Below, in pieces: positions 1 to 61,900 of a stretch of DNA of 64,000 bases. Position numbers and translations under genes: made by a program. Source of the DNA: an uncultured Melioribacter sp. (GTDB lineage: Bacteria; Bacteroidota; Ignavibacteria; Kapaibacteriales; Kapaibacteriaceae). Numbering within the stretch: position 1 is the first letter of the stretch; the number at the start of each line of letters is the position of its first letter. The stretch spans positions 15,157 to 79,156 of the forward strand of contig CAZAGH010000003.1 in the NCBI GenBank assembly GCA_964484755.1, given 5' to 3'. The notes beneath the pieces were generated by a model. That model was not told the origin of the DNA and did no database searches. It saw only the letters and a list, made by a program, of their open reading frames with translations.

Positions 1-3000
1 CATCGAACGACAAGCTTGTTATCTACTACGTGAACCTTACGCCAATCGGTGCAAAGACGGCTACGGTTGGTGGTGTTACGCACAACGTAACGTTCAATCC
101 TAACAACCGTCCGAGCAGTGGTGGTGAACACTATCGTTTCTCGATGCAAGTAACACTGAATCGCTCGGACAGCTCCGTTGTAGTTCAGTATGAGCGTTTC
201 TCCGGTATCGCTCCCCGTGGCGCACTGTCTCCACACCCTGCAACTGTTTGGATGCGTTGTAACTCGACGGTAGGTGTTACTGGTCCAGCACGTCGCCTAA
301 ACTGGAGTGGTTTCCCAACGACTCCACTTCCAGCAAACACGATGTTGGATTTCAATACAATTAAGTACACGCAATACACAGAATACCTCCACAACGTGGA
401 CAATGGTGGTTCGGTACGTGCTGTGAGCTCACGTAATGACGACAACACTGTTCCGAAGGACTTCTTGGCTATCAAGTTCAAGCAGTACAAGAACATCATG
501 CGCGTTATCAACGTGTCGTATCGCGTACGCCAGCTGAACAACAATGCGAACCTCGCGTTCTCAGTTGTTGTTCCAACAGCTCAAGCTAACAACTACGAGC
601 TTCTTGCAGGCGAAGAGCGCCTCGGTGCTATCCAGCCAGTTGCCATCGTACAAAGCTTGACGAATGACATTCAGGGCCCACAAGGCGTTAACTACACACG
701 TCAGGGTGTGAACTTCAAGGTTCGCTTCCTTATCCGCAATGAAGCTACAGGCAAGATCGTCTACAACACGTCGAAGTCTGTAACAGACGCTGCGCTTCGT
801 GACACGCTCCTTTCAGGCGTTTATCGCTGTGACATCAACGGTAACAACCAGCCTTATCAGCCAGCCAACACATTTGTGTTGCCATACGAATTCATCAAGG
901 TTGTGTTCCCGCCGTTCGAGCCGAACCCGTTCATCGACGACCAAATCGGCCGCTTGCTCACGACAGTTATTGCCGAACCTAAGGACTCACTGAACCAGCC
1001 TCTTGGCGATCAGTGGCCGTTTGACGATACAACAAGTATCCGCATCTTCTCGATGCGTCGTTTGTCATCATTCAGTGATGATGTAACTGAGTATCACCTC
1101 GTCGGTGGTGCGGCTATGCCTTCGGTTCTCAAGTGGGTAAACATCGAAACAGATGTTGTTGACGGTGATGAAATCACGAACAACCCACCACCTCCACGTG
1201 GTGAGTATGCTGCTGCAAACTCTGAGATCTATCGTCTCAAGTCGCCAGTAATCCGTCTTAACCGCGTCAATCTTGGCAACGTTGATATCCCACCTGTAGG
1301 TCAGTACGGTGGTGACGAACTTCGTTCGTTCCCAATCAACCTTACACGCAAGAAGCGCGCTGTTCTCTCGATCTCATATCAGCGTACAGGTAAGCTTACG
1401 TCACTTGCTCGTGGTTTCTCAGACAATCGTCTGATTGGACCTGAGCACCGTGTAAACATGCTTGCAGTTAACGGCTTCACGCCTGGCTTCCGTAACCCGG
1501 ACGAAGTATGGGTTGAATTCGCACGTCCAAGCGTAGACCAACTGAACGGTATCACCAACATTCAGAACTGGGTACTCGACGTTCAAGCTCGTGGTACGCA
1601 GTACATTCAGCCATTCCGCATGTGGGGTGGTGGTGGAAATGCCCGCGGATATGATCTTGCTGACTACAACCTTCAGTTGACAGCATCTCCGAACCCACCG
1701 CTTGGTGGCTTCCGTGAAGATCTCTTCGACGACGGTAAGGATGCAGAGTACTACAAGGTAACGATCCCAATTCCGGATACAGTGCTTACTTGGGTGAACG
1801 AAGGCGCACGTAACTTCCGTTTCCGTCTGCGTGCTCGCTGCTTGAATAACTCAACACCGCCACTTCCGGCTGACGATGAAGACAATTTCTTTGTTGACAA
1901 CGTGAAGCTTCTCTTCCCAGACGAAGTCACGGACGTTGAATTCTCGAACATTCAGTTGATCTGGCCATACACGATGGCGCCTGCTTCACAGGCAACTCGG
2001 GTTCCAGTTCGCGTCAAGATTTCGAACAATACAAACATTGCCGCTCCGGCTTTCTCCGTACGTGTTCAAATCAAGCCAGACGGTAATGAAGCTCAGCAGA
2101 TCTATTGCCGTACGATCACAGTTCCAACACTTGCTGGTAACCGTGAAGTATTGCTTCCGTTCCCTGATGCTAACTTCCGTACAACAACACCTGGTCAGTA
2201 CAAGGTTACGGGCCGTATCTTCTTCCCTGGTAATGACTTGGATACATTGAACGACTCAACGTTCACGATGTTCCGCATGACATTCGGCCCAGCTTTCGCT
2301 TACGAAAACAATCCGAACAATGCTACGAACGACGTTCCTAAGCTTCAGTTCTCAGGAATCACAGGTAAGGGTCTGAACCACCGTGGTGGTAATGGCGGTG
2401 GCGCTGGTGCATCATGGGGTCAGCTTGCAGGTGCTGGTGCTCAGTACTCTTCAGGTAGCTCATGGGGTCAGATTCCGTCTGGCGTAACTGCTAACGATAT
2501 GTTTGGTGCAGACGCTGGTAACGCTTCTGGTCAGATCGCTATGCGCTTTACATTGTTCTCTCAGGATACAGTTGCTGGTTACCAGGCTTACTGGGCTGAA
2601 CTCAACCAGGACGTTCTGAATATCTCGTTCTCACTCTATCGTGACCAAGGCGGTCTCCCAGGTGATGAGCGTATCGCGAATTCGACCATTCTTCGCCGTC
2701 GTGGTGAAGATGAAACCGGTGCGTTTAATGAGCCACAGTTTGGCAAGTATGTAACGTATCTCCTAAGCCAGCCAGTGGTTATCCCACCGGGTGAATACTG
2801 GGCATCTGTCGCACAGATGGGTACAGAAGGTTACGAACTTGGTGCTTCTGAATCACGTATGGGTATGGTTACAACATTGTACTCAGACATCCCAGTCTTC
2901 GGTATCGGTAACCGCACACTTCTGATCGATAAGAACTTCCGTATCCGCAACCGTTCAGGCGCGTTGCTCAATGACAACCGCTTCGCGTTTGAATTGACAC

Positions 3001-3833
3001 GCTTCTCAGGTGACTGGGCTCCATTCACACCTACAATTGGTAACCCTGGTTATCCGCACCTCAATGCACTTGGTTCGAGCCTTGGTTATCCAACGTTTAC
3101 ACGTGGTTCATGGATTCCATTGCTCCGCCCATTCTTCGGCAATCGTTCATTCTCAAGCCCGCCAATCTTTGTAGAGTGCGGAGTTCCAGTAGAACTTTCA
3201 TACTTCGACGCCAAGGCCCGTGCCACAGGTATCGACGTGTTCTGGGAGACAGCTCAAGAGAAGAACAACGCTGGATTCCATGTTGAGCGTCGTGCTACTA
3301 AGGAGATCACAAACTTGACAACCGGTAAGACAATGCTTTCATGCGTTGATCGTACGGCAAGTGTCGAGAATCCTTGGGTTGCTGTTGGATTTGTCAATGG
3401 TGTTGGTAACTCATCATCAACATCGAACTACAAGTATTTCGACAACAACGTATCCGTTGGAACGAAGTACGAGTACCGCCTCCGTCAGGTAGACGTTTCA
3501 GGTGCTCAGTCATTCTCAAACGTTGTCAACGTGGAATTTGGCAACGGTTCAGATGTAGCGCTTGACAACAACTATCCAAACCCGACAAATGGCAAGACAA
3601 CGTTCACGTTCACAGTGCCGTTTAGCTCACGTGTCAAGCTCGAAGTTTTTGATCTCATGGGTAACTCCATCAAGACTGTTTACGACAACGTCGTTGCAGG
3701 CCAGTCAAATGCATATGCAGTTGAATGGGATGGACGTCACAATGATGGTTCAGATGTAGCTTCTGGCTCGTACATGTACAAGCTTACAGTTGGTGAGACG
3801 GTTCTTTCAAAGACTCTCACAATCGTTCGCTAA
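1..3833 (+). CDS. Large secreted protein with a T9SS type-A C-terminal sorting domain; the 5' end is probably outside the window
   Basis: The frame is open from base 3 up to the listed GTG at 30, so the N-terminus is likely truncated. The last ~85 aa (NYPNPTNGKTTFTF..VFDLMGNSI..GSYMYKLTV..) fit the Por-secretion-tail pattern. No catalytic motif was recognised. Confidence 0.7.
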   Translation, partial: SNDKLVIYYVNLTPIGAKTATVGGVTHNVTFNPNNRPSSGGEHYRFSMQVTLNRSDSSVVVQYERFSGIAPRGALSPHPATVWMRCNSTVGVTGPARRLNWSGFPTTPLPANTMLDFNTIKYTQYTEYLHNVDNGGSVRAVSSRNDDNTVPKDFLAIKFKQYKNIMRVINVSYRVRQLNNNANLAFSVVVPTAQANNYELLAGEERLGAIQPVAIVQSLTNDIQGPQGVNYTRQGVNFKVRFLIRNEATGKIVYNTSKSVTDAALRDTLLSGVYRCDINGNNQPYQPANTFVLPYEFIKVVFPPFEPNPFIDDQIGRLLTTVIAEPKDSLNQPLGDQWPFDDTTSIRIFSMRRLSSFSDDVTEYHLVGGAAMPSVLKWVNIETDVVDGDEITNNPPPPRGEYAAANSEIYRLKSPVIRLNRVNLGNVDIPPVGQYGGDELRSFPINLTRKKRAVLSISYQRTGKLTSLARGFSDNRLIGPEHRVNMLAVNGFTPGFRNPDEVWVEFARPSVDQLNGITNIQNWVLDVQARGTQYIQPFRMWGGGGNARGYDLADYNLQLTASPNPPLGGFREDLFDDGKDAEYYKVTIPIPDTVLTWVNEGARNFRFRLRARCLNNSTPPLPADDEDNFFVDNVKLLFPDEVTDVEFSNIQLIWPYTMAPASQATRVPVRVKISNNTNIAAPAFSVRVQIKPDGNEAQQIYCRTITVPTLAGNREVLLPFPDANFRTTTPGQYKVTGRIFFPGNDLDTLNDSTFTMFRMTFGPAFAYENNPNNATNDVPKLQFSGITGKGLNHRGGNGGGAGASWGQLAGAGAQYSSGSSWGQIPSGVTANDMFGADAGNASGQIAMRFTLFSQDTVAGYQAYWAELNQDVLNISFSLYRDQGGLPGDERIANSTILRRRGEDETGAFNEPQFGKYVTYLLSQPVVIPPGEYWASVAQMGTEGYELGASESRMGMVTTLYSDIPVFGIGNRTLLIDKNFRIRNRSGALLNDNRFAFELTRFSGDWAPFTPTIGNPGYPHLNALGSSLGYPTFTRGSWIPLLRPFFGNRSFSSPPIFVECGVPVELSYFDAKARATGIDVFWETAQEKNNAGFHVERRATKEITNLTTGKTMLSCVDRTASVENPWVAVGFVNGVGNSSSTSNYKYFDNNVSVGTKYEYRLRQVDVSGAQSFSNVVNVEFGNGSDVALDNNYPNPTNGKTTFTFTVPFSSRVKLEVFDLMGNSIKTVYDNVVAGQSNAYAVEWDGRHNDGSDVASGSYMYKLTVGETVLSKTLTIVR

Positions 3834-16200: not shown

Positions 16201-17526
16201 CTTACCTACGATGTCGATAACGATGGACGGATTGACTTGGGCTTTGGATCAACGATTCCTGAAATCGGTGCCATGACAAGTTTCACGTTTGTTCGGCAGA
16301 CAGAACGTATGCAGTTCCCCGCACCAAGCGCCCTGCGTGGTATCCATGAACCAACCGACAGTACGCTTGGTAGCATTCGGCTGTCGTGGTTCCCTGTTGA
16401 TGGAGCTGCCTCGTATCAGGTAACTCGACGAGTTGGACGAGTTGATTCCTTGATTGCAGAGACTACGTCGACAAGCCACGTCTACACAATGCGGGGCATA
16501 GCCGATTCAGTCATCTCGTTTGTCGTGCGTGCTGTTCCAGGTGGTAATTCTGTCCTTGCAGGCAGAGAATCAAACCGGGTTGTCATCGACGCACGCCCTG
16601 TTATCCTCGGAGTAGGGCTCGATCGCACCACGATCACGAGGCGAGAACTTCGTGATGGGTTGACCTTGAGCTTTGCCATTGGCGCAGGTGGAGTGTTCCC
16701 ACGTGGACTCTCATTGCCGGCCCAGCAAATTCTATCTGTCCGAAGCAACGACGTGATCACGACAGCCCGTTATGGCCGGCCGCGTGGTGACATAGCACTC
16801 GATCTTGTCTTTCCCGGTGTTGAATACACAGAAGATTCTCTTCGCGTGACTGTAAAGATTCCGGTCAGCCGGGATCTGTATGTGGCCAGGACGTTTACTC
16901 TGCGAGTTATTGATACTCCAGAGCCTGAGCGTTCACGCAAGCTGATAACTCTATCAGGCGTTACCGTGCGGTCACCTCTTGAGCTCAGCCTTCGGTTTTC
17001 TCATCCAGTGGATGCCAGCGCACTCAAAGCATCAGCATATCAGCTTCGTCCAGCAGGAGTAGTGAGTAGCGTGGTACGTATCGACGATTCGACCGTCTTA
17101 CTGGCACTCGATGAAGGAGCGCCGTTGAAGGCGATCGGCATCACGTATGCCATCACGGCAAGAGATGTCACGTTTGACACAACGCATGCAATTGCCCAAG
17201 GGGCTGGCAGCACGCTCACCTTCAGCGTGTTTGGAAGAGGAGAGCAAGACGTCTATGCCTACCCTCAGCCACTAAAACTGCAGACACACCAAGAGCTCGT
17301 GTTTGCCGGACTACCGGCGATCTCGGATGTTGAAATCTTCGATGTCAACCTCAAACCAGTTGCGTTTCTGCGCAGTGTAGACGGTAACGGTGGTCTGCGA
17401 TGGAATCTTCGTACATCGTCGTCACGTGAAATTGAACCTGGCGTCTATTACTACATTGTCACGAGCCGAGATCCTGACGGAAGTTCCGATGTATGGCCGA
17501 TGAAGAAGTTGCTTATCCAGCGATGA
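13222..17526 (+). CDS. Secreted subtilisin-family (S8) peptidase with FG-GAP/VCBS-like repeats and a T9SS-like C-terminal domain
   Basis: Signal peptide; D/H/S triad motifs (IIDTGID, HGHGTLVAG, SGTSFSAPYVA); repeats of the type DIDGDGREEIL and GDFDGDGKMEIAF; a beta-rich tail (VYAYPQP..VEIFDVNLKPV..GVYYYIV). ATGA overlap with the recQ stop. Confidence 0.85.
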   Translation: MIVRLTMAVACIVLLGSAQSASAQDILVLTSTDQLPAELRSMQPTRVIPNGLLEKGRETQQVGKVSAALLRRLHRYVRISRSNMTATIDSIRSIPGVIAAWNVQRAQLHIRPSEETPISDDSLSSSQYALELVGARQAWQVASGTGITIGIIDTGIDWDHEDLRDALAISPKEDLNANGRFDAWPYDQERAGIWGDLNGIDDDDNGMVDDVIGADFVDQEFRNLGDDRWYDPVPFDEHGHGTLVAGVVAATKDNKKGIAGLAHGARLRAIRAFDATGSAEEDDIAAGLLYAASNGVQIVNMSFGDGVNSPLMQDAIEYARTQGCILVASAGNSGLVSTQYPASYTGVIVVAATTSKDLRAPFSSTGPVVSLSAPGQAIITTSVNSRYRTVSGTSFSAPYVAATAALLLERFPDLGAEEIRGTLMASSKDLGEIGWDPLYGAGRLRADAALAVLGTSRLAITHPFNEQEFFEDTQELVVLRGSNHIINFERCEVAVGQGVDPRQWTVAFTRSVSVIDDTIGGLSIDTLSLGLHTIRMRVYCTDGRHHDAHVRIRVTRQTDNRRAYEHVTAWMRDRKTDVVTLSTFVPTNVAITDGSAPFADIASTPKKYATLHSIVLPDTWGTTTSDRLIQITTTPMVGESFTTGHSLVKPPHQAIPTTGWDTVLTAPWAGYVLNDVRDLYRDGGKCVVMNDLSDGAFGRTVVTQYKDGRWILRDSLSDTYIPRAICDANGNGRYEVLCHVVGKTVLFEQQTSTSSLFGSVLFADTTNVLNAAGAADIDGDGREEILALADNACYVYTCKDDRFSLLGIAKNTSEPPSSNATNRVDEISIASGDFDGDGKMEIAFSDTDGDLVVHEWNGASFEEEIVFENPGAGGSGFVAAGDVTADGLPDILHGIPDSVDANPEGEYGRQVWTYNLYTADQSTGHFKVWTDRVAGVRLGIGYRNGVAIADIDSMPGAEIIISAFPRLFVFGRDTVQREIVPKAFFDDVATPRVLTYDVDNDGRIDLGFGSTIPEIGAMTSFTFVRQTERMQFPAPSALRGIHEPTDSTLGSIRLSWFPVDGAASYQVTRRVGRVDSLIAETTSTSHVYTMRGIADSVISFVVRAVPGGNSVLAGRESNRVVIDARPVILGVGLDRTTITRRELRDGLTLSFAIGAGGVFPRGLSLPAQQILSVRSNDVITTARYGRPRGDIALDLVFPGVEYTEDSLRVTVKIPVSRDLYVARTFTLRVIDTPEPERSRKLITLSGVTVRSPLELSLRFSHPVDASALKASAYQLRPAGVVSSVVRIDDSTVLLALDEGAPLKAIGITYAITARDVTFDTTHAIAQGAGSTLTFSVFGRGEQDVYAYPQPLKLQTHQELVFAGLPAISDVEIFDVNLKPVAFLRSVDGNGGLRWNLRTSSSREIEPGVYYYIVTSRDPDGSSDVWPMKKLLIQR

Positions 17527-50180: not shown

Positions 50181-50999
50181 CTACAATGCAACCGCAATTC
50201 CTGCGGTTAGGAGCGAAATGTTGTACCTGTTGATGAAGTACGATCTTGCAGGCCTTCCTGTCGAGCCCTGCCATGTTTGAGGGTCAAACACCGGCGTAAG
50301 CGGATACGAATACCCGACGTTGAGATCAATGCCTCGGATCAAACCCAAATCCCGGAAGAGCCTCACTCGTAGCGAACCATGAGCGTTGAATACGAAACTG
50401 TTGTATGCAGAAAGTGACGAGGTTGTATCAATTCGTGTCCGCGAACCATTTTCAAACATCAAGTTTTCTGGAAAGTCAAGCATCTCCGTTTGATGAAACT
50501 CTGTCGATGCGATGTAGTAGGCATCCGGACCAATACCGATCCAAAGCCAGTCTGTGAGCTCGTACTCTACCGTCAGGTGCACCGGCACCGTATGAAATGT
50601 CAGGTCAAGTTCATGCTTGAAGACTGCGTCAACATCTTTGCCTACACCCTGATCGTATACGGGCTGCGTAGAAAATGAAGTGTACGTTACCGGCAAGATC
50701 TGATAGCCTACTCTCGTACTGAGGCGCAGTCCATCATTTGACAAAGGGAAACTACCTCCCAGCTGAACGCCGTAGCCAATACCAGTTGAGTTTTCGAACC
50801 CTAAGCAGCAGTTCTCTATCGGTGGCAATGAATTAAAGTCTACATCGTGAAAAGCGTTCGTACCAAAAAGGTTGATCGACCATTCCGTGGAAGCATTCGC
50901 TGGCGATTCAGTCTGCACAGTGTCGTTCGACACTTGCGCGAATGCAATCATCGTACCAAGCAAGAAGACAGTAGTGAGAGCGAGGATTTGCTTCATCAT
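50181..50999 (-). CDS. Module A gene 3: predicted outer-membrane beta-barrel protein with a conserved FNSLPPIENCC motif
   Basis: Signal peptide MMKQILALTTVFLLGTMIAFAQ, an alternating-hydrophobic strand pattern to the C-terminus, homology to 57050..57973, and an ATGA overlap with the upstream stop. Confidence 0.7.
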   Translation of the reverse strand: MMKQILALTTVFLLGTMIAFAQVSNDTVQTESPANASTEWSINLFGTNAFHDVDFNSLPPIENCCLGFENSTGIGYGVQLGGSFPLSNDGLRLSTRVGYQILPVTYTSFSTQPVYDQGVGKDVDAVFKHELDLTFHTVPVHLTVEYELTDWLWIGIGPDAYYIASTEFHQTEMLDFPENLMFENGSRTRIDTTSSLSAYNSFVFNAHGSLRVRLFRDLGLIRGIDLNVGYSYPLTPVFDPQTWQGSTGRPARSYFINRYNISLLTAGIAVAL

Positions 51000-51904
51000 G
51001 GTAGCTTTAGAAGAGTCGTGCGAGCAGTGTTGTCTGCCGAAACAAATGTTACCGTGTAAGTCCCAGCTGGGATCACGGGCAGGTCCACGGTGACCAGTGG
51101 CCACTGAGCGTTAGCTTCGATACCAAGCTTATGCACAACAATGTTGCCGTGCATATCGGTGATCATAACGGTTCCGGTTACCGATTCTTCCGAGTACACG
51201 CGCAATCCTACACTTGACCCCGTAACAGGATTCGGCGCAACAAGTATTGATGGTTTCCCTGTGGACTTCACAAGGCGCGTATTGCCATATGTCGTGCAAA
51301 GGCCCTGCAGAGTCACAGAACCAGGCGTTGATCGCGTAAACTGGCGGGGAACCGCCGTCCAACGAAACGACTCGACGCGCACTGCACTCATGGTATCGTT
51401 GCCGAGTAGTGCACGAAACACGAGTGTTGTGAGTTTGCCTGACTGCCCCGAAGCTTTGCCCGTAACAGTTATGGTGTGATAGTCGCCGTTGTCTTCGATC
51501 TTATCGAAAACAAGTGGAGCAAGGACTGTGCGATTAAACGCGAGCTTTAGCTCCCACTCACGTTCGACACCGTCCTGAAAAAAGGCACACGGTGCACCAT
51601 ATCCAAGATCAAAGTTGAACGTGTCGCCGACCTGTTGAACCTGCTCCGGAACAACAATCGTTGTGTTCTCATAGCTCTGTTGATAGTAGTCACCTATGCT
51701 CTGCAATCCGCCAGCAAGCCGTGGTGTGGGCCCGACGTCTCCGAGCATCGGTTGGCCTATCGATACGCGCAATCCGAACTTGCCCGAAACGGGGCTGGCG
51801 ATTGCACCGCTTGTAACGCCGCCACCTGCGATGCCGTATTGTGCATGCACGCGGCCAACGAGCAGCATGACAAGGAGGAGAGATAAAATGATGTTTGTTC
51901 TCAT
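50996..51904 (-). CDS. Module A gene 2: secreted protein with a T9SS type-A C-terminal sorting domain
   Basis: The ATG at 51904 gives the signal peptide MRTNIILSLLLVMLLVGRVHAQ. Tail APNPVTGSS..VMITDMHGNIV..IPAGTYTVTF..LLKLP. Homologous to 57970..58887. Confidence 0.75.
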   Translation of the reverse strand: MRTNIILSLLLVMLLVGRVHAQYGIAGGGVTSGAIASPVSGKFGLRVSIGQPMLGDVGPTPRLAGGLQSIGDYYQQSYENTTIVVPEQVQQVGDTFNFDLGYGAPCAFFQDGVEREWELKLAFNRTVLAPLVFDKIEDNGDYHTITVTGKASGQSGKLTTLVFRALLGNDTMSAVRVESFRWTAVPRQFTRSTPGSVTLQGLCTTYGNTRLVKSTGKPSILVAPNPVTGSSVGLRVYSEESVTGTVMITDMHGNIVVHKLGIEANAQWPLVTVDLPVIPAGTYTVTFVSADNTARTTLLKLP

Positions 51905-51939: not shown

Positions 51940-54900
51940 TTACGTTGTTGCCATGAGAACCCACTTCTGGAGAGTTCCAGAGTAGATGAATGTGATGGAT
52001 TGGTTGTTGCCAATAGTCTTATTTGCTACACCGAGGATAAGACGATTGTCAGCCGCTGAGCGATTGTCTTCATTCTGGAAGGTAATGTTCTTACCAGACT
52101 GATTGATGATGATGATGACACGGCCATTCTCACCATTGTCAAAGCCGGTAATGTCGGATCCCTGACCAGCGTTGATCATGCGGAAGAACGCGTTATCGGA
52201 GATGTTGATGTTGTTGATTACCGTGCCCGCTCCACGGAGTAAGTCAATATCAATTGTTGTACCCTCAGTCAGTACGAACTTTCCGATGTTGCTTGATGGA
52301 TTTTCAGCCACCCACTTATCGGTAGCTGCGTCATAGACGAGAGCAAATCCGTCTTGCAATGTCAAAGGTGATGTGATCTGCTTGCCACCAATTGTCGAAG
52401 CATCAGCAGAAAACGTTGCCGGCTTCCATGTATTAGCAGTTGCATCCCATGTGAGCACTTGATTGTTGGTTGGAGCCGTTGCTGCTACTGCGCGGCCCTG
52501 AAGACCATCAACCGTTGGATTCGGATATGTACCATTGAGATCACCACCTGCTGTTCCACCTGGAGCAACACCGCTGATGGTTACGTTGTTGGCTGCCGTT
52601 ACGCGACCTTGCGCGTCAACTGTGAATGAACCTACTTGTGTTGCTGTGCCGTACTGGCCTGCCGTGACGGCAGTGTTTGAGAGCTTAGCACTTGTTACCG
52701 AACCGTCAGCAATATCTGCCGTGCCCACAGCTCCGTCAAGTATCGATGTGGATGTGACCGCCCCTGTAGCGAGAGTCGGATTCGGATACGTACCAGTGAG
52801 AGCGCCGCCCGCACTTCCGCCTGGCGTAACACCGGCAATCGTGATGTTCGCAGCAGCTGTTATGCGACCCTTCGAGTCAACGGTAAACGAACCAACTTCA
52901 GTGGCAGTACCATACGAACCGGCGGCAACACCCGTTGTGCTGAGCTTCGCACTGGTGATCGCGCCGTCTGCAACCTTTGCAGTCGTTACGGCACCGTCAG
53001 CAAGATCTGCGGTTGCTACCGAACCGTCAATGATGTTTGCTGATCCAACAGAACCATTGGCGAGCGTTGGATTAGGGAACGATCCTGTGAGCGCACCACC
53101 AGCTGCGCCAGTTGGTGAGGCTCCTGTGATGGTGACATTCGTTGCACTTGTAATGCGACCCTTAGCATCGACCGTGAACTGACCAACCTGTGTTGCTGAT
53201 CCATAGGTGCCCGCTGTGACCAACGTGTTCGCAAGCTTAGCGTCAGTTACAGCGCCATCCGCGAGGTCGGCTGTGCCAACCGCTCCATCTGCGATAGAGG
53301 AAGAGCTTACAGCTCCCGTAGACAGTGTTGGGTTGGGGTACGTTCCTGCAAGTGCGCCGCCCGCTGCACCTGTAGGTGCTGCACCTGTGATGGTAACATT
53401 TGTTGCGCCAGTTATGCGACCCGACGCATCAACAGTGAACTGCCCAACCTGCGTTGCTGATCCGAACGTTCCAGCATTAACACCTGTGGCTGCCATCTTT
53501 GCAGAGGTCACCGCGCCGTCACCGAGGTCAGATGTTGCAATCGATCCATCTGTGATGTTGCCTGATGCTACCGAGTTGCTGGCAAGCGATGGGTTTGGAT
53601 AGCTGCCTGTTAGTGCACCACCGGCAGATCCACCAGGAACAACACCAGAAATCGTTACGTTCTGCGCCGCTGTTATGCGTCCTGCAGCGTCCACAGTAAA
53701 CTGTCCTACCTGGCTGGACGTACCATACGTGCCGAACAAAACGCCAGTGCTTGTCATCTTAGACGACGTCAGCGTTTCGTCTGCAATATCCACTGCTTGG
53801 ATCGAACCATCGGCAATGCGTGATGAAGTAACAGAGCCAACTGCAAGAACTGGATTAGGGTAATTTCCAGTAAGTCCGCCGCCTGCGCGACCTGTTGGTT
53901 CAGCTGCCGCTATTGTTACGTTCCCTGCACTTGTGATACGTCCAGCAGCATCAACGGTGAATTGGCCGACCTGAGTGGCTGAACCGTATATGCCAGCTGT
54001 AACACCAGTGTTGGAAAGCTTTGCTGAGTTTACGATTCCATCCCCAAGATCAGCAGTTGCGATCGAGCCGTCTGTGATGTTGCCAGAGCTTACCGAATTG
54101 GCTGCGAGCGTTGGGTTAGGATATGTTCCTGTGAGTGCTCCGCCAGCGGAACCGCCAGGTGTGGTACCCGTGATTGTGACGTTTCCGGCAAAGGTGAGGC
54201 GACCCTGTGAATTGACGGTGAACTGACCAACCTGTGTTGCACTGCCGTACGTTGCAGCAGTTACACCAGTTGATGAGAGCTTCGCATCATTAACAGCACC
54301 ATCGGCAATGTTTGTTGTTGAGATACCGCCCGCTGCGATGTCAGAAGATGTGATTGTACCGTCGATGATGTTTGCGGAAGCGACAGCGTTATTCGCCAGG
54401 GTAGGGTTCGGATATGTGCCAGAGAGAACGCCACCTGCCGAGCCGCCCGGTGTAACACCTGAAATGGTTACGTTTGATGCCGTTGTAAGACGTCCCTGCG
54501 CATCAACCGTAAATGCACCAACTTGCGTCGAAGATCCATAAGAACCTGCAGTGACCGTCGTGTTGGCCAGCTTGTTAGCCGTAACAGCCCCATCTGCCAG
54601 ATCGGCTGATGTTACTGAACCATCTGCGATCGCAGAAGAAGTAACTGCACCAGCTGCTAGTGTAGGATTGGGATATGTACCGGAGAGAACACCGCCCGCT
54701 GGGCCGCTTGGAGAGATTCCGGAGATGGCAACGTTTGTTGCTGATGTGATGTGACCACGAGCATCTATCGTTATCTGCGGCACAAGCAGGCTCGAACCAT
54801 ACGTGGCTGCTGTTACACCCGATAGGTAGTGCTTTGGAGCTGTGATTGCACCATCAGCAATGTCGTTAGTAGAAATCGTGAGATCTTGAATGTTGGTCGA

Positions 54901-56793
54901 CGTTACAACTCCCGTTCCAAGACTTGGATTAGGATATGTACCTGAGAGAACACCTCCCGCTGCACCACCTGGAGTTGTGCCGCTGATCGTGATGTTCTGC
55001 GCTGTTGTTACGCGGCCTTGAGCATCAACTGTGAACTGACCAACTTGTGTCGCGTTTCCGTACGTGCCTGATGTAACGCCTGTGGTTGAGAGCTTCGACG
55101 ATGGAATTGCACCGTCGGCAAGGTCTGAGCCTTGGATCGAACCATCAACGATGTTGAGCGATGTTACAGAGTTATTCGCAAGTGTTGGGTTCGGATATGA
55201 TCCCGAGAGAGCGCCGCCAGCCGGACCCGATGGTGCTGTTGGTGCGATTGGAATGGAAAATGCTGTGACGACGCGACCTGATGAGTCAACAGCCACAACT
55301 GCTGAATGCGTTGACGAGCCATATTGGCCAGGATTTACTCCCGTTGGTACAAGCTTCTGCGAGGTAACAGCGCGGTCAACGATTTTATCTGTCGATACCG
55401 CGTTACTTGCAAGATCAACATTCGCAACAGTGCCGTCCAGAATTTTGCTTGATGTTACAGCTGCATTCTTGATGTTGTCTGTACCAACGACATCGAGTGC
55501 CAGCTGTGGGTTTGGATATGTTCCGGTAAGGTCGCCGCTGGCAGGACCAGTAGGGGGCGAGCCAGCCATTGGGACATTCTGGATCGTAACGATTCGACCC
55601 GACTTATCGACATACATTTGAGGGATCAGGGTAGACGAGCCATAAAGCCCGGCATCCAGTGGCATCTGTGAAAGCTCATCACTGCCAATAGAGCCATCCT
55701 TAATGTTGGCAGCCGTGATCGTATTTGGGGCGATCTTTTGGCTTGTAACAGCAAAGTCTGCGAGCTTCTGTTCGGTTACAGCCTTGTCGGCAATCTTCGT
55801 TGTCGTGATGGCAGCACCAGAAATCTTTTCCGATGTTACCGCACCCTCTGCAAGTTTTGGTGTTGTTACGTTGAAGTCAACAAGCTTCGATGTCGTAACG
55901 CTATTGTCGGCAAGCTCAGTTGTCGTTACCGCTGCACGCGCAATCTTCTCAGTCGTGATGACGCCGTTCTTGATCGTTGGTGCCGGATAGAAACCTGTGA
56001 GTTCTCCACCAGCCGTTCCTCCAGGCGGTACGCCAATGATTGGAACTTGTTCGGCAAACGTCACACGGCCCTGCTCGTCTACACGCAGCACTGTACTGGT
56101 GTTCGATGAGCCAAAAGGACCAAGTGGGCCTTGATGAATCTCCTGCAGTGCGGCTGCACCAACAGTGTTATCGTTGATCTTCAGAGTAAGGGCGTTGAGT
56201 GCACCAGAAACGGTAACGTCTGATCCTGTGCTTGATGCTGCCCCCTCTACGCGAGCAGCATTAATCGACTTCGTACCTGTGGCATTGATAGAGTTGATCA
56301 GAACATCACCCATGTTGTTGGCCGGGTTGTTGATCGACTGACGTATAGAATCAGCGACCTGCGGCGTTACAGCGCTTGCAATCTCAGCAGACTTAGCATT
56401 CAATGCGTTGAGAGCGTAGGGAACGGCTGTGAGGAACACCCGCGGTGTCAGCTCCGGTTGGCTGTTGATCGAGGTGCCAAGCCATAAGAATTGATCGAAT
56501 GAAACATCCAGTGGAGTCTTGTCGCCAAGGATAACGTTGAATACGCCACCATTGGTCGTTACTGTGTGACGCTCTTTCCAGATCCCGGTGCCGCCAAGCG
56601 CAACATTATATAGCGTAAGGTCAACTGTCCAGACGCTATCGCAGACTGGAATGCCGGTAGTGTCGATCAACACCCCTTGGTATGTGATCTTCTTTGGAAT
56701 GCCTGCCTGCGCAGATGCGCCAGTAGACGCTGCTGCGATAACAACCGCGAGCATGAGCGCCATGAACAGGCCACGTACTATCGTCTGTGCCAT
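51940..56793 (-). CDS. Module A gene 1: giant (1617 aa) secreted repeat protein, fibre-like
   Basis: The ATG at 56793 gives the signal peptide [28 protein letters not shown]. It is followed by an N-terminal ~100-aa domain, 13 repeat modules and a 189-aa C-terminal domain. Confidence 0.85.
52510..56142 (-). repeat. Coding repeat array of giant protein 1: 13 modules of 87+10k residues, with nested decapeptide repeats
   Basis: Hand-counted spacings between (Y/F)P(N/A)P motifs are 157, 107, 87, 87, 87, 97, 87, 87, 87, 87, 97, 87. Confidence 0.85.
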
Positions 56794-57049: not shown

Positions 57050-57973
57050 TTAGAAAACCAAGCCGAACCCAAACGTCAACATTGATATTGAATATGAATC
57101 AATAAAGAACGTTGCAGGTGGATTACCGTACATACCTCTCCATGTTTGTGCAGAGAACAACGGTTGCAGTGGCAGCGAATATCGCCCGAAGATATCGACA
57201 CCAACCGCCCCCTGTTGCTTTTCAATTAATCGGATGCGCGCAGAACCTGTGGCATTGAAAACGACAGCATTCTGGCCGCGAACGTATCCATTCTTGTCCA
57301 AACGCACGCGTGTGCCCGTCTCGAAGACAAGGTTGGATGGTTCTTCTAGCGTTTCTGTTTGGTGAAAGGAGCCCGTAGCATAGAAGTAGCCGTCGAGCCC
57401 GAATCCAAGGTAGAAACTGCTAAGAACGGGATACTCGAGTCGTGCACCAAACGTTACGGTTGTCCAGGTTACGTCTAGTGTATGACGAAAGAGGGCGTCG
57501 CCAGAGACAACACCACCAGTGAACGCCTTTTCCGTAGAGTACGAATCAAACGACACGGGCATGTTAACATAGCCGATGTGTGGTGTGATCGTAAGGCCAT
57601 CAGCGGTAAGGGGCGTTGTGTATCCAAGCTCAAAGCCGAATCCCAGCCCCTTGCTGTCACTGAACCCTGTGCAGCAGTTTTCGATAGGAGGAAGCGAGTT
57701 GAATGATGCATTGTGCGTAGCAAGGTTGCCTACGAACGATACCGTAATCTCGTCATGTGAATGAGCGACGCCATGGTCATGCACGTGTTGATGCTCGTGC
57801 ACATGTCCGTATGCATGCGAATGTTCATGTGGGTGAGTATCGCTTGCTGAATGCTGGTGTGCGTGACCGTGGTTGTGATCGTGCACATGCATGGTGTCGG
57901 ACTGCTGCGCGGAAGCCGATGTCATGCAAAGCAAATACGCCGCCATAATTGTAACTGAGAAGCTTGATATCAT
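57050..57973 (-). CDS. Module B gene 3: predicted outer-membrane beta-barrel protein with a His-rich N-terminal tract and the FNSLPPIENCC motif
   Basis: Signal peptide, 19 His within 45 residues after it, a beta-strand pattern ending in a C-terminal Phe, and an ATGA overlap with the upstream stop. Confidence 0.7.
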   Translation of the reverse strand: MISSFSVTIMAAYLLCMTSASAQQSDTMHVHDHNHGHAHQHSASDTHPHEHSHAYGHVHEHQHVHDHGVAHSHDEITVSFVGNLATHNASFNSLPPIENCCTGFSDSKGLGFGFELGYTTPLTADGLTITPHIGYVNMPVSFDSYSTEKAFTGGVVSGDALFRHTLDVTWTTVTFGARLEYPVLSSFYLGFGLDGYFYATGSFHQTETLEEPSNLVFETGTRVRLDKNGYVRGQNAVVFNATGSARIRLIEKQQGAVGVDIFGRYSLPLQPLFSAQTWRGMYGNPPATFFIDSYSISMLTFGFGLVF

Positions 57974-58887
57974 GGCAGCTTCACCATAGTAGTTCGTACC
58001 ACATCGTTTTCCGTAAAGAGAGCCACCGTGTACGAACCAGCAGGGATCACCTGAAGCTCAACGGTTGTCATCGGCCATGTTGATCCTGCCTCCACTCGGT
58101 CTGCTGTGTAGACGATGTTCCCGTGAATGTCTGTCACGACAAGCGTTCCAACTTGCTGTTTATCTGAGTATGTGCGCATCGTGAACGATGAGCCCGTTAC
58201 AGGATTTGGTGCAATGAGGATCGCCATCTTGCTTGGGTCTTTCAGCAAACGCGTAGAGCCATAGGTGTTGCATAGACCACGAAGAACGACGGTCCCTTGC
58301 ATGGACTGAACATACTGACGTTGCGCATCTACCCAGCGGAATGATTCAACTCGGACATCTGTGACGGAGTCGTTTCCAAGGCGCCCCATCATCGGGATGC
58401 GGGTTAGCACTCCATTGTTTGATGTTGCACTGCCTGTAAGTGTGATCGTGTAACGATCCCCATCATCAACAAGAGAATCATAGCGAAGGGGCTCGAGCAC
58501 TGTTCGGTTGAAACTGAGCTTGAGTTCCCAGTCGCGGTCCACCACCGTGCTCTGAAAAAGTGCGCACGATGCACTGTAGCCAACTTCAAGAGCAAACGTA
58601 TCGCCAATTTGCTTGACAACACTGTCGACTCTGAGAAGCGTTGATTCGTAGTACTTCTGAACGGCGTTACCATGGCTGATGATGCCGGAGCGGACGATCG
58701 GGTCGAGACCCGTTTCGCCAACAATTGGCAGACCAACAGCCCCCTGCATGTGGTAGTCACCAAGTTGGATCGCAGTTGTCGCGCCACTGGTCACAACCCC
58801 GCCCACGACTGTCTGACCCTGCATCGGGGATCCCACGATGCCGAGAAGACAACCAATCACGAGTATGTGTTTCATTGTTGTTTTCAT
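57970..58887 (-). CDS. Module B gene 2: secreted protein with a T9SS type-A C-terminal sorting domain
   Basis: Signal peptide MKTTMKHILVIGCLLGIVG. Tail APNPVTGSS..VVTDIHGNIV..IPAGSYTVAL..MVKLP. Confidence 0.75.
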   Translation of the reverse strand: MKTTMKHILVIGCLLGIVGSPMQGQTVVGGVVTSGATTAIQLGDYHMQGAVGLPIVGETGLDPIVRSGIISHGNAVQKYYESTLLRVDSVVKQIGDTFALEVGYSASCALFQSTVVDRDWELKLSFNRTVLEPLRYDSLVDDGDRYTITLTGSATSNNGVLTRIPMMGRLGNDSVTDVRVESFRWVDAQRQYVQSMQGTVVLRGLCNTYGSTRLLKDPSKMAILIAPNPVTGSSFTMRTYSDKQQVGTLVVTDIHGNIVYTADRVEAGSTWPMTTVELQVIPAGSYTVALFTENDVVRTTMVKLP

Positions 58888-58906: not shown

Positions 58907-61900
58907 TTAGGTAGTGGCCATGAGGACCCACTTGCCCAGAGTACCAGAATAGATGAATGTTATCGACTGGTTGTTGCCGATCGTCTTGTTTGCTACGCCT
59001 AGAATGAGCTGGTTATTAGCTCCAGAACGACCATCCTCGTTTTGGAAGGTGATGTTCTTACTTGACTGGTTGATGATAATGATCACGCGACCGTTCGCAC
59101 CATTTGCAAAGCCAGTTATGTCGGAACCTTGGCTTGCATTCGTCATCCGGAAGAATGCGTGATCAGAAATATTAATGTTGTTGATTACAGTTCCGGCTCC
59201 GCGTAACAAGTCGATGTTAATCGCAGTACCCTCACCCAAAATCAACTGCTTAATGTTACCTGTTGGATTTTGTGGAACCCATTTATTCTGAGCCGCATCG
59301 TAGGCAAGAGCATCACCGTCATTAGGATTGAGGATAGGATCGACTGCAATACCCCCGATTGACGATGCTGTAGCTGTTACCGAAGCTGGCTTCCACGTCT
59401 GAGCAGTATTGTCCCATGTGAGAACCTGATTGTTCGTTGGTGCCGTTGCTGCAACCGCACGACCCTGCAATCCATCGACTGTCGGGTTTGGATAGGTGCC
59501 GTTTAGATCGCCACCGGCAGTGCCACCCGGAGTTACTCCTGTGATCGTAACGTTCTGTGCAGCAGTGATGCGGCCGTTAGCATCAACAGTGAATTGGCCT
59601 ACCTGTGTTGCCGAGCCGTATGTGGCTGCGGTAACGCCAGTCGTTGAAAGCTTTGCAGCTGTTACCGCACCGTCAGCAATAAGTGGGGCAGTGATAGCGC
59701 CTGTGGCAATGTCGCCTGTTGCGACCGCACCATCAACGATGTTGCTTGAGTTGATGGTGTTCGCAGCAATTGATGGGTTCGGATATGTTCCAGTGAGATC
59801 ACCACCAGCCGCTCCACCTGGAGTTACACCAGTGATCGTGATGTTGGCAGCCTGTGTCACGCGACCCTTTGAATCGACTGTGAACTGGCCAACCTGCGTT
59901 GCCGAGCCGTATTGTCCGAGGATTACACCTGAGTTCTCAAGCTTGTCGGCAGTTACAGATCCTGGAGCAAGCTTTGCAGCTGTTACAGAACCGTCAGCGA
60001 TCTTGGCGGTTGTGACAGCACCGTCGGTCAACTTGGCCGTTGATACTGCACCATCTGCAAGCTTAGCACCGGTGACGTTACCATCTTGGATTTTCGTCGT
60101 GGTAACAGCATTGTCGCCAAGTTTAGCCCCAGATACTGCGCCGTCAGCGAGCTTTGCAGTTGTGACGTTGCCATCTGCAATCTTCGCTGTCGTGACCGCA
60201 TTGTCAGCAAGGTCTACCGTTGCAACTGTTCCGTCGAGGATCATTGGCGATGTAACAGCACTGTTCGCGATGGTAGGGTTAGGATACGTTCCCGTCAGAG
60301 ACCCTCCAGCTGCGCCAGATGGTGCAACGCCAGAGATAGTAACGTTTTGAGCTGATGTGATTCGACCCTTTGAATCCACTGTGAACTGACCAACCTGTGT
60401 TGCAGAACCATACTGACCTGTGATCACACCGGAATCATCAAGTTTGTCCGGTGTAACTGAACCAGGTGCGAGCTTGGCGCTAGTGACTGAGCCATCGCCA
60501 AGCTTGGCTGTAGTAACAGCGCCATCGGCGAGCTTTGGTGTTGTGACGTTCCCATCGGCGATCTTCGGCGTCGTAACGGCGTTGTCAGCGAGCTTAGGGG
60601 TCGTAACGTTTCCATCAGCAATTTTTGGTGTTGTTACAGCATTATCAGCTAGATCGATCGTTGCCACTGTTCCGTCGAGGATCATTGGCGACGTTACAGC
60701 ACCCGTTGCGATAGTTGGGTTAGGGTAGGTGCCTGTGAGCGATCCACCAGCTGCGCCTGCAGGAGCAACACCTGCGATCGTGATGTTTGCGGCTTGGACA
60801 ACGCGACCCTTCGAATCGACAGTGAACTGTCCAACTTGTGTTGCTGAACCGTACTGTCCAACAATAACAGCGGTATTCTCCAGCTTGTCGCCAGTTACTG
60901 AACCAGGAGCGAGCTTCGCAGCCGTTACAGATGCGTCAGCAAGTTTTGCTGTTGTTACGTTACCGTCTTGAATCTTCGCCGTCGTTACGGCATTGTCTGC
61001 AAGCTTCGCATTCGTCACATTGCCATCGGCAATCTTCGGTGTTGTTACAGCATTGTCTGCAAGATCGACTGCCGCTACAGTGCCATCGAGAATCATACCT
61101 GATGTTACCGCACTCGGAGCAATGGATGGGTTAGGGTACGTGCCCGAGAGTGACCCACCAGCTGCACCACCTGGTGAAACGCCTGCAATAGTAATGTTCG
61201 CTGCTTGCGTTACACGCCCCTTAGAATCAACAGTGAACTGACCGACTTGCGTAGCAGAACCATACTGACCAACTACGACGGCTGTGTTCTCGAGCTTGTC
61301 TCCAGAGACTGCTCCTGGAGCGAGCTTATCTGCAGTAACAGATCCATCAGCCAGTTTTGCTGTTGTGACATTCCCATCTTGAATCTTTGCTGTTGTTACT
61401 GCATTGTCACCGAGTTTCGCATTCGTGACAGCGCCGTCTGCGAGCTTTGGAGTTGTGACATTAGCATCAGCAATCTTCGCTGTTGTAACGGCATTATCTG
61501 CCAGATCTACCGTAGCAACTGTACCATCAAGAATCATTGGTGATGTAACAGCGCCATTAGCGATTGATGGATTTGGATACGTTCCTGAGAGGGAACCACC
61601 GGCTGGTCCGGCTGGAGTAACTCCTGCGATTGTTACGTTTTGAGCCGACGTGATACGCCCTTTAGAATCGACTGTGAACTGACCAACCTGCGTGGCAGTA
61701 CCGTATGTACCGGCAGGAACGCCTGAATTCTCAAGCTTATCAGCTGTGACCGATCCCGGAGCGAGCTTCGCGGCAGTGACCGAGCCGTCGGCGATCTTGT
61801 TTGTTGTAACTGCGCCGTCAGCAAGCTTCGCTGCCGTCACGCTGCCGTCTGTGATCTTATTCGTCGTGACGGCACCGTCTGCAAGCTTCGCGCCAGTTAC

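Follow-up and report, generated by a model that had tools for sequence, protein, structure and literature searches.

A phage tailspike-type domain ends two paralogous giant proteins of an Ignavibacteria/Kapaibacterium-type Bacteroidota member

In the window (the whole 64,000-nt stretch of DNA that was analysed), which comes from a member of the Ignavibacteria/Kapaibacterium-type Bacteroidota, two giant proteins end in a conserved segment of 189 aa. At the domain level, this segment belongs to a phage tailspike family and shares its fold, lies at the exact C-terminus, and is encoded in an operon with two further genes, here called gene-2 and gene-3. Our preferred reading, held at about even confidence, is that the segment caps the C-terminal end of a cell-surface fibre that resembles phage tail fibres and is of the mosaic adhesive trimer (MAT) kind, where it would act as a trimerisation and distal-knob domain. 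The features of the two giants are as follows.

51940..56793, minus strand: giant 1, complete fibre gene, 1617 aa (ORF and translation; phrog_892)
56710..56793, minus strand: giant 1 signal peptide, 28 residues followed by Q (read from the sequence)
56389..56709, minus strand: giant 1 MAT_N-like N-terminal beta-rich domain, ending VPYAL (NF053851 match)
52510..55986, minus strand: giant 1 shaft of phage tail-fibre repeats (PHROG; repeats visible in the translation)
51943-52509, minus strand: giant 1 C-terminal domain (CTD), aligned with the giant 2 CTD by BLASTP
52270..52509, minus strand: opening ~80 aa of the segment, with a pair of beta-hairpin fibre motifs, QVLTWD..TWKPA and ALVYDAA..KWV (AF2 hairpins; PHROG)
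51943..52269, minus strand: final ~109 aa of giant 1, a PF25692-like beta-sandwich cap (PF25692; AF2; Foldseek)
58907..>64000, minus strand: giant 2, a paralogous fibre running off the window at its N-terminus, 1697 aa visible
58910-59476, minus strand: giant 2 CTD, aligned with the giant 1 CTD by BLASTP

Conservation of the C-terminal segment

Both segments are the extreme C-termini of their proteins and lie on the minus strand. They had been noted to align over 189 aa without gaps at about 42 differences, mostly within the first ~80 residues, leaving the final ~110 residues near 90% identical. BLASTP bore this out: 147/189 positions are identical with 0 gaps (E 1e-104), and exactly 42 differ. 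Of these, 28 fall among the first 79 residues, which are 64.6% identical, and 14 among the last 110, which are 87.3% identical; over the last 100, 89/100 (89%) agree. The CTD was also described as the most conserved part of the giants. For the parts visible in the window this is the case: when 100-aa stretches slid along giant 1 are compared with whichever part of giant 2 fits them best, they otherwise reach at most 84/100, although the final shaft repeat, just upstream of the CTD, has a high identity too (84%). Giant 2 extends past the edge of the window, so the N-terminal domains are not comparable within it. Across 10 complete related cassettes (45 pairs), mean identity was 67% for the CTD, 52% for the N-domain, 47% for gene-2, and 42% for gene-3, and the CTD ranked as the most conserved part of the cassette in 96% of pairs.

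This similarity might reflect recent gene conversion or duplication rather than function, given that the cassettes are tandem paralogues ~7 kb apart and that conversion is common in such settings. However, pS in the CTD is 0.74-0.79, saturated like that of gene-2 (0.77) and gene-3 (0.83), while pN is ~4-5 times lower (0.085 over the last 112 aa vs. 0.38 and 0.43). The CTDs also cluster by cassette type across genomes, not by genome, and each CTD resembles its orthologue in other genomes (~98% identity for giant 1) more than its paralogue (78-80%). Because synonymous sites are saturated, this pattern reflects purifying selection and not recent copying, as originally proposed. We conclude that the CTD is under strong purifying selection; gene conversion, ruled out by the saturated synonymous sites and the grouping by orthology, is scarcely credible as the cause. 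Stand-alone versions of the domain (153-155 aa, P0003-P0006) were also considered as independent small proteins and set aside as gene-call fragments: the P0006 sequence, at locus L001, lies within a 1237-aa ORF interrupted by a run of N, and P0003-P0005, on contigs of ~1-2 kb, are probably fragments too.

Family and fold of the segment

The first ~80 aa of the segment are 65% identical between the giants. The two short motifs that had been noticed at the start of the domain are real and correspond to beta-hairpins predicted by AF2 (pLDDT 57-85). PHROG tail and minor-tail matches, as well as a match to a Mesorhizobium phage tail-fibre protein, all fall within this part. The two hairpin motifs are generic phage-fibre motifs: an exhaustive profile search returned 7,542 matches, and among the stretches listed with the highest scores, the majority correspond to the two-motif part of the profile.

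The cap that follows is 87-89% identical between giant 1 and giant 2. PF25692 (Phage_depo_C) matched the CTD at 28.1 bits with the 189-aa query and at 30.5 bits with the 112-aa core, above its gathering threshold of 25 bits, and it matched 16/29 relatives of the domain at E<=0.01; P0034, a relative with six internal copies of the domain, was matched at 3e-29. Membership in PF25692, assigned by profile, holds for the domain only. AF2 modelled residues 81-189 as a compact all-beta sandwich with pLDDT 95-98. Searching PDB sequences with the CTD turned up chance-level matches only. The best PDB matches from Foldseek were an Acinetobacter phage Solidus tailspike depolymerase (24qj, E 3e-4), the N-terminal region of CBA120 TSP4 (TSP4-N, E 9e-4), CpaA, the Pa223 capsid spike, and StcE. 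TM-scores were modest (0.35-0.5) because the query takes in the floppy hairpin region. In BFVD, 169 structural matches had E<=0.001, the top ones being uncharacterised phage, tail-fibre, and minor-tail proteins.

The cap thus shares a fold group with CBA120 TSP4-N, Escherichia coli StcE (4DNY), and Acinetobacter baumannii CpaA (6O38, a metalloprotease together with its chaperone). The latter two are listed neighbours of the TSP4 XD1 domain (PMC8825819, Table 2), and PDB neighbours from that list were also returned by Foldseek for the CTD model. We conclude that the cap represents one subfamily within a phage tailspike domain that is already in the catalogues. This match to a known tailspike/tail-fibre C-terminal family, by PF25692 above threshold and by the tailspike domains found with Foldseek, counts against the original suggestion of a new kind of sorting domain.

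Like PF25692 in general, the cap forms a compact beta-sandwich with which a phage-type fibre or spike ends at its C-terminus, and its profile score is above threshold. It differs in being preceded by a repeat fibre shaft rather than a depolymerase beta-helix: no beta-helix or lyase family in Pfam matched upstream of the cap, where the tail-fibre repeats lie instead. Unlike PF25692 at large, the close subfamily (..AFFRM.NA..NGENGR..NKTIG..WVLMATT) is always at the exact C-terminus and is unusually invariant. It was found only in Ignavibacteria/Kapaibacterium-type Bacteroidota, and a scan of IMG/VR viral contigs with two patterns confirmed no member. More distant relatives of the domain occur within proteins annotated as phage tail fibres, and other large proteins contain 3-6 internal copies in tandem. 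None of the phage tail-fibre proteins examined has the domain at its end; it lies internally, so its role may vary with context.

Secretion and the neighbouring gene pair

Each giant gene is followed by gene-2 and gene-3, for which the window holds two sets.

50996..51904, minus strand: gene-2a, 302 aa, with signal peptide and disordered Gly-rich linker (TIGR04183; AF2; Foldseek)
about 51305-51667, minus strand: gene-2a cohesin-like beta-sandwich (AF2 and Foldseek)
about 50999-51262, minus strand: gene-2a T9SS type-A CTD (TIGR04183)
50181..50999, minus strand: gene-3a, 272 aa, motif F.SLPP[IV]ENCC.G (weak OMP_b-brl and OMP_b-brl_2 matches)
57970..58887, minus strand: gene-2b, 305 aa, paralogue of gene-2a, 47% identical (comparison with gene-2a)
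57050..57973, minus strand: gene-3b, 307 aa, paralogue of gene-3a, 40% identical (comparison with gene-3a)

The gene-2a product, which has an identical 302-aa counterpart in the database (P0274), carries a central region modelled by AF2 at pLDDT 85-94. Its top PDB matches in Foldseek are cohesins (4fl4, 4ums, 4dh2, 1g1k, 2vn6, and others), with E of 6e-7 to 1e-5 and TM-scores of 0.55-0.62 normalised to the target. The fold is that of the cohesin modules of cellulosomal scaffoldins, and the cohesin is a classic protein-docking module. The gene-2 module differs from these in that it has no match to the Pfam cohesin family at E<=10, is fused to a T9SS type-A CTD, and is encoded by a gene whose stop overlaps the start of an outer-membrane-protein gene.

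Gene-3 is probably an outer-membrane beta-barrel, judging by its weak family matches. The gene-3a product has a signal peptide, and its homologues terminate in F or L and keep the motif F.SLPP[IV]ENCC.G invariant. We tried and rejected PorP/SprF, PorQ, PorV, and autotransporter barrels as identities for gene-3, since their family models match only at noise level; the PorP/SprF model in Pfam/NCBIfam matched 0/9 gene-3 homologues at E<=10. Profile searches with gene-2 and gene-3 yielded nothing useful. The start of gene-3a overlaps the stop of gene-2a by 4 nt (ATGA), and gene-3b, which has an additional His-rich N-terminal stretch, shares an ATGA overlap with the stop of gene-2b. This 4-nt overlap suggests that gene-2 and gene-3 are translationally coupled.

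The CTD had been described as having no recognisable T9SS tail, and we found no match to TIGR04183, TIGR04131, or PF18962 at E<=0.1. The same models matched 0/29 relatives of the domain at E<=10. By contrast, gene-2a in the same scan reached TIGR04183 above the cut-off (28.8 bits, cut-off 23). Solved type-A CTDs are seven-stranded Ig-like beta-sandwiches; the CTD model is a beta-sandwich too, but of its 127 Foldseek matches in the PDB (E<=10), the 50 that were listed include no T9SS CTD structure.

The further idea that the CTD is a new class of T9SS sorting signal, recognised directly or in trans via gene-2, with gene-3 as a PorP/SprF-like shuttle or anchor, received no positive evidence, and we consider it improbable. 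The organism does use T9SS, as seen from the TIGR04183 match of gene-2 and from Por_Secre_tail in ORF 30..3833 of the window and in proteins encoded at neighbouring loci, and the giants combine a Sec signal peptide with a compact beta-sandwich at the exact C-terminus. The gene layout also resembles that of type-B CTD cargo, which has cognate PorP/SprF genes directly downstream (PMC12618676). As with SprB-SprF of Flavobacterium johnsoniae (PMC12618676, PMC9143113), the gene for a giant surface protein with a conserved C-terminal domain precedes a small outer-membrane-protein gene in a T9SS-bearing phylum. However, our cassette has no TIGR04131 or PorP/SprF match, its CTD has a different predicted fold, and a cohesin-like gene with a type-A CTD stands between the giant and the outer-membrane-protein gene. 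Moreover, the domain family is internal in phage tail-fibre proteins and occurs in tandem repeats, where no C-terminal signal is possible, and other caps are found on MAT-like fibres that share the N-domain. The CTDs of T9SS paralogues are also usually far more divergent than the 86-89% identity seen here.

The predicted linkage to the neighbouring genes held, as both gene-2 and gene-3 lie directly downstream in 21/22 testable loci, and gene-2 was always accompanied by a CTD-bearing giant upstream, down to 32-35% gene-2 identity. The original preference for an export, anchoring, or docking role over a ligand-binding tip thus holds only in part: the linkage, the absence of a T9SS tail among the models searched, and the selection on the segment agree with what had been proposed, and the tailspike/tail-fibre family and fold count against it. 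The domain is also widespread away from the partner genes, contrary to what a dedicated sorting domain would lead one to expect: it occurs in phage tail fibres, as internal tandem copies, and at locus L011, where the same CTD sits on a fibre with a different N-terminus and shaft and neither gene-2 nor gene-3 lies within the 9.7 kb read.

A docking role, in which a trimeric CTD would plug into a surface complex of gene-2 and gene-3, with the C-terminus cell-proximal or mounting an accessory adhesin, is possible but unlikely. It draws on the synteny, the cohesin fold of the gene-2 central domain, the extreme conservation of the CTD, and a structural relative, the N-terminal region of phage CBA120 TSP4, that has an assembly and anchor role (PMC8825819). 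Yet between the cassettes the CTD keeps 86% identity where gene-2 has just 47% and gene-3 40%, which gives no indication that the CTD co-varies with the partners of its own cassette. The CTD at L011 does without partner genes, and no dockerin partner for gene-2 was identified, the giant CTD being an all-beta sandwich and not a dockerin. Homology with MAT and phage fibres would place the attachment end at the N-terminus (PMC10769870). Among the 10 cassettes with common ancestry, N-domain divergence correlated with that of gene-2 and gene-3 at r 0.88 and 0.90, and CTD divergence at r 0.81 and 0.77; these mirror-tree-style correlations are a weak hint that the N-domain is the part linked to gene-2 and gene-3. 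Still, the synteny in 21/22 loci is also compatible with a direct interaction between the CTD and its partners.

It is quite improbable that the cap instead determines secretion or anchoring in trans, with the cap trimer binding the cohesin-like module of gene-2, the type-A CTD of gene-2 carrying the fibre through T9SS, and gene-3 serving as the dedicated outer-membrane anchor. If true, type IX secretion would have a piggy-back or 'adaptor' mode, and the cap would amount to a new sorting-domain class.

A proposed MAT-like fibre and its possible socket

We return to our preferred reading, a MAT-kind fibre with the segment as its cap. The body of giant 1 matched phrog_892 'tail fiber protein' at E 4.8e-78 over 13 stretches, and PHROG tail-fibre families matched it over 6-13 stretches each. 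The predicted signal-peptide cleavage site of giant 1 leaves Gln at +1, which fits the Bacteroidetes Q-rule (PMC5837995). NF053851 (Bdello_MAT_N) matched the N-domain in 5/5 N-termini of orthologues and paralogues (26-33 bits), best at E 5.4e-8 and 32.8 bits, all under the curated cut-off of 60. Elsewhere, proteins with the same N-domain have quite different C-termini, or exchangeable caps, a pattern that follows the logic of chimeric fibres.

Bdellovibrio bacteriovorus MAT proteins of the NS74 subgroup (PMC10769870; NF053851) have a similar layout: a signal peptide precedes a conserved beta-rich N-terminal domain of ~110-130 aa, of which the giants have a putative counterpart; next comes a shaft like that of phage tail fibres; and the C-terminal cap is a beta-sandwich that lacks an S74 chaperone. 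Relatives that share the N-domain bear other caps. Our proteins differ in their weak N-domain match (26-33 bits vs. a cut-off of 60), in their host, a non-Bdellovibrio Bacteroidota lineage, in a cap that is conserved and not diversified among paralogues, and in the dedicated gene-2/gene-3 pair after each fibre gene. Literature searches on PF25692 and on Ignavibacteria tail-fibre systems yielded no description of this system. We know of no gene-2/gene-3-like pair beside MAT genes.

By analogy with these relatives, the fibre is presumably trimeric and displayed at the surface. Tagging the C-terminus of MAT fibres showed this end to be exposed at the surface, and a cell-proximal position has been proposed for their N-domain (PMC10769870). 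The C-terminal sandwiches of tailspikes help to form the trimer, serve as a nucleus for folding, and bind receptors (PMC10936425). The C-terminal sandwich would then nucleate trimer folding, as in phage tailspikes, and the cap would be the distal knob, with the MAT_N-like domain cell-proximal. Near-invariance of the knob could come from trimer-interface constraints plus the binding of one conserved partner or ligand, with no secretion signal involved. Gene-2 (T9SS-exported and cohesin-like) and gene-3 (a putative outer-membrane barrel) would probably form a socket at the surface in which the fibre is held, with its N-terminal domain as the likelier point of contact.

Several observations sit uneasily with this reading. 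Distal receptor-binding tips are usually the variable end, yet no part of this cassette is more conserved than the cap, and such extreme conservation at a supposedly variable end is still without explanation. The MAT_N match falls under its curated cut-off, and the reading offers no route across the outer membrane for a fibre that lacks a T9SS CTD.

On present evidence, the CTD is a subfamily of a known phage tailspike domain and not a new sorting signal. On our reading, MAT-type chimeric fibres, which have so far been characterised in a predator, Bdellovibrio, would also exist in Ignavibacteria/Kapaibacterium-type Bacteroidota. There the fibre gene would belong to a fixed cassette of three, together with the genes for a cohesin-like T9SS cargo and for an outer-membrane protein. 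Work in Bdellovibrio left open which surface element holds the conserved N-domain and by what route the fibre reaches the surface (PMC10769870). The accessory pair encoded beside the fibre offers a concrete candidate for the N-domain holder or the surface route.

[quoted passage not shown]

The window was ordinary chromosomal DNA of ~52% GC, with helicases, a Mur ligase, a class II tRNA synthetase, isocitrate dehydrogenase, and similar genes. Two tandem three-gene cassettes lay on its minus strand, with suffix a for giant 1 and b for giant 2.

Features of the two fibre cassettes
51940-56793, minus strand: giant 1, 1617 aa
50996-51904, minus strand: gene-2a, after giant 1
50181-50999, minus strand: gene-3a, after gene-2a
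58907 to beyond 64000, minus strand: giant 2
57970-58887, minus strand: gene-2b, after giant 2
57050-57973, minus strand: gene-3b, after gene-2b

The last 189 residues of the giants (the C-terminal domain, CTD, or cap) aligned without gaps and were identical at 147 of 189 positions (E 1e-104). This leaves exactly the 42 differences roughly estimated in the original prediction; residues 1-79 hold 28 of them and the final 110 residues 14. As also predicted, the CTD was the most conserved part of the giants within the window, with 89% identity over the last 100 residues. Elsewhere in giant 1, the best match of any 100-aa segment to visible giant 2 reached only 84/100, in the last shaft repeat. 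Synonymous sites were saturated in the CTD (pS 0.74-0.79), and likewise in gene-2 (0.77) and gene-3 (0.83), whereas pN was 0.085 in the last 112 aa of the CTD vs. 0.38 in gene-2 and 0.43 in gene-3. Moreover, each CTD was nearer to an orthologue in another genome than to its own paralogue. Together, saturated pS, low pN, and closeness to orthologues bear out the earlier claim of selection over recent copying, and the first and last of these refute gene conversion as the cause of the similarity.

The last shaft repeat (52510-52740, minus strand) was 84% identical between giants vs. 45-72% elsewhere in the shaft, so the conserved C-terminal module exceeds 189 aa. A variable patch lies amid this module at CTD residues ~30-80.

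Fold, family, and distribution of the domain

The first ~80 CTD residues, which hold both motifs singled out in the original prediction, have predicted beta-hairpins and matched PHROG tail and minor-tail families and a Mesorhizobium phage tail fibre. Most of the best-scoring stretches listed for an exhaustive profile search (7,542 hits) mapped to these hairpin motifs, which are generic fibre motifs. The last ~110 residues scored 28.1-30.5 bits against Pfam PF25692, the “phage depolymerase C-terminal beta-sandwich,” over its gathering threshold of 25. AlphaFold2, run with a 118-sequence alignment, modelled residues 81-189 at pLDDT 95-98, and the best Foldseek PDB match of the CTD model was the Acinetobacter phage tailspike depolymerase 24qj (E 3e-4). 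Other best matches were the N-terminal assembly region of phage CBA120 TSP4 (7rfo/7rej), CpaA (6o38), a Pseudomonas phage capsid spike, and StcE (4dny); this is the CBA120 TSP4 XD1 fold group as tabulated in PMC8825819. Among predicted viral structures, the model had 169 matches at E<=0.001, headed by uncharacterised phage proteins and by tail-fibre, minor-tail, and collagen-like proteins. The CTD constitutes a new subfamily within an already catalogued phage domain.

A new T9SS sorting signal, acting directly or in trans, would fit the phylum, the position of the CTD, and the operon layout, which resembles that of type-B CTD cargo with PorP/SprF shuttles (PMC12618676). However, positive sequence or fold evidence was absent: no T9SS CTD structure occurred among the 50 Foldseek PDB matches listed for the CTD model, and 0/29 domain relatives matched either class of T9SS CTD model (type A or type B), even at E<=10. 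Gene-2, scanned in this way, exceeded the TIGR04183 cut-off. We consider a sorting role improbable.

Elsewhere in the window, a 1267-aa protein (30-3833, plus strand) ends in a canonical Por_Secre_tail/FlgD_ig-type T9SS CTD, and a 1434-aa S8 subtilase (13222-17526, plus strand) carries FG-GAP repeats. These proteins indicate that the organism exports other large proteins with ordinary type-A CTDs.

The close subfamily (AFFRM.NA..NGENGR..NKTIG..WVLMATT) was always located at the very C-terminal end of its fibre (589-2094 aa). Distant relatives shared the core motif R..ITG..GG.DGR..N.G..IT..ED..S.AANRF..YD.T..RWR and occurred in several settings: repeated in tandem 3-6 times within other large proteins (one matching PF25692 at 3e-29), as a single internal copy in proteins annotated as phage tail fibres (from Bradyrhizobium phage ppBdUSDA122-1 and from several Caudoviricetes genomes), and in P0236, a secreted 181-aa protein (L012:8001-8546) inside a type IV pilus/T2SS-like operon. 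Two patterns scanned against IMG/VR viral contigs confirmed no close relatives. This spread over settings argues that the fold is a general-purpose phage adsorption module rather than a dedicated C-terminal signal. The tailspike/tail-fibre match and the occurrence of the domain without partner genes, the two outcomes that the original prediction named as weakening it, both count against the proposed new class of sorting domain.

The multi-copy database proteins (P0034, P0071, P0081, P0104, P0117, P0132, P0142, and P0153; 908-2646 aa) have 3-6 spaced internal copies of the domain in a diverged form, ..NQNDYNPTGL..LRL..ITGL.GG.DGR..N.GSF.ITL..ED..S.AANRF.L..YD.T.SRWR. The operon around P0236 reads PilMNO-secretin-T2SSF/T2SSE-pseudopilin, and use of the domain may extend to proteins associated with pili.

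Partner genes and their synteny with the cap

The gene-2 family is rare (18 clusters in 5.8 billion). In gene-2, a signal peptide and a disordered Gly-rich linker are followed by a beta-sandwich, for which cohesin modules were the top structural matches (E 6e-7 to 1e-5, TM about 0.6), and by a T9SS type-A CTD. The gene-3 product also has a signal peptide, matched outer-membrane-barrel families weakly, and usually ends in F; it did not match PorP/SprF. The motif F.SLPP[IV]ENCC.G, with an adjacent Cys pair, was invariant in gene-3a, gene-3b, and all gene-3 homologues and matched no known family; the remainder is poorly conserved and predicted to be an outer-membrane barrel. In both cassettes, the gene-3 start overlaps the gene-2 stop as ATGA (50996-50999 and 57970-57973), which suggests that the two genes are translationally coupled and that their products form a stoichiometric complex.

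B-type gene-3 (gene-3b and homologues at loci L003, L005, L006, and L007) has a long His-rich stretch directly after the signal peptide, HVHDHNHGHAHQH..HEHSHAYGHVHEHQHVHDHG, and a-type gene-3 (50181-50999) has none. Weak ZIP/ZrgA/nickel-transporter matches suggest that this stretch may bind metal.

Related loci came from Ignavibacteria, Candidatus Kapaibacterium, and unclassified Bacteroidota MAGs. Gene-2 and then gene-3 homologues directly followed the CTD in 21 of the 22 loci with DNA available downstream (counting L019, where the contig end cuts off gene-3), even where gene-2 identity fell to 32-35%. The exception was L011 (4899-8570), from a Bacteroidota MAG. Its fibre terminates in the same cap (45-57% identical) and differs from the giants at the N-terminus and in the shaft repeat (GNTGEIRWYELAANG..YTLP.ADG). 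The next gene encodes an NRAMP-like transporter, and the 9.7 kb examined contained no gene-2 or gene-3. This locus is evidence for the cap as an exchangeable module.

A full cassette, with a gene-2 homologue 41% identical, was also present in L008 (CAZBOW010000037.1), labelled an uncultured Hyphomicrobiales MAG; this contig is probably mis-binned Bacteroidota.

The synteny, and the phage assembly region with a docking role among the CTD's structural relatives, could mean that the cap docks onto the cohesin-like module of gene-2. Yet the cap and its partners do not co-vary, with the CTD 86% identical vs. 47% for gene-2 and 40% for gene-3, and L011 has the cap without either partner. We consider docking unlikely.

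Fibre architecture and proposed mechanism

Giant 1 begins with a Sec-type signal peptide whose predicted cleavage exposes an N-terminal Gln, as in genes 2 and 3, fitting the Bacteroidetes Q-rule (PMC5837995). A beta-rich N-domain (...VPYAL) follows; 5/5 sequences tested matched the NCBIfam N-domain model of Bdellovibrio mosaic adhesive trimer (MAT) fibres (best E 5.4e-8), all under its curated cut-off. The body is a long phage tail-fibre repeat array (phrog_892, E 4.8e-78, 13 stretches). Proteins sharing the N-domain elsewhere carry quite different C-termini. MAT fibres are likewise chimeras, joining an invariant N-domain, proposed to be cell-proximal, to exchangeable, surface-exposed C-terminal caps (PMC10769870), and the proteins that share the giants' N-domain follow this logic.

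What appears to be a decayed cassette was seen at L006 (10604-12432) and at L025 and L026 (9769-11432). A MAT_N-like N-domain is followed there, ~125 aa on, by a gene-3 homologue of which only the C-terminal two-thirds is left, and shaft, cap, and gene-2 are all missing. Beside it lies a complete fibre that is unusually short (589-611 aa).

In the reading we favor, whose chances we judge about even, the cap would nucleate folding and trimerisation from the C-terminus and form the knob at the distal end of a MAT-like surface fibre, held by a surface socket of gene-2 and gene-3 products, more probably via its N-domain. Tailspike C-terminal sandwiches act in trimer formation, as folding nuclei, and in receptor binding (PMC10936425). 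Interface constraints plus one conserved binding partner would account for the cap's invariance; we infer this partner, as we do the fibre's orientation, trimer state, and surface display, while the analysis itself shows the fold, family, selection, and synteny. The N-domain is favored as the attachment end because its divergence follows that of gene-2 and gene-3 more closely (r 0.88-0.90 vs. 0.77-0.81 for the CTD), because the only fibre without a MAT_N-like domain (L011) also lacks both genes, and because N-termini are the attachment ends of MAT and phage fibres (PMC10769870). Our literature search found no description of a fibre/gene-2/gene-3 system. The system is a new variant: MAT-like fibres in another phylum, each accompanied by two dedicated accessory genes, one for a cohesin-like T9SS cargo and one for a probable outer-membrane protein.
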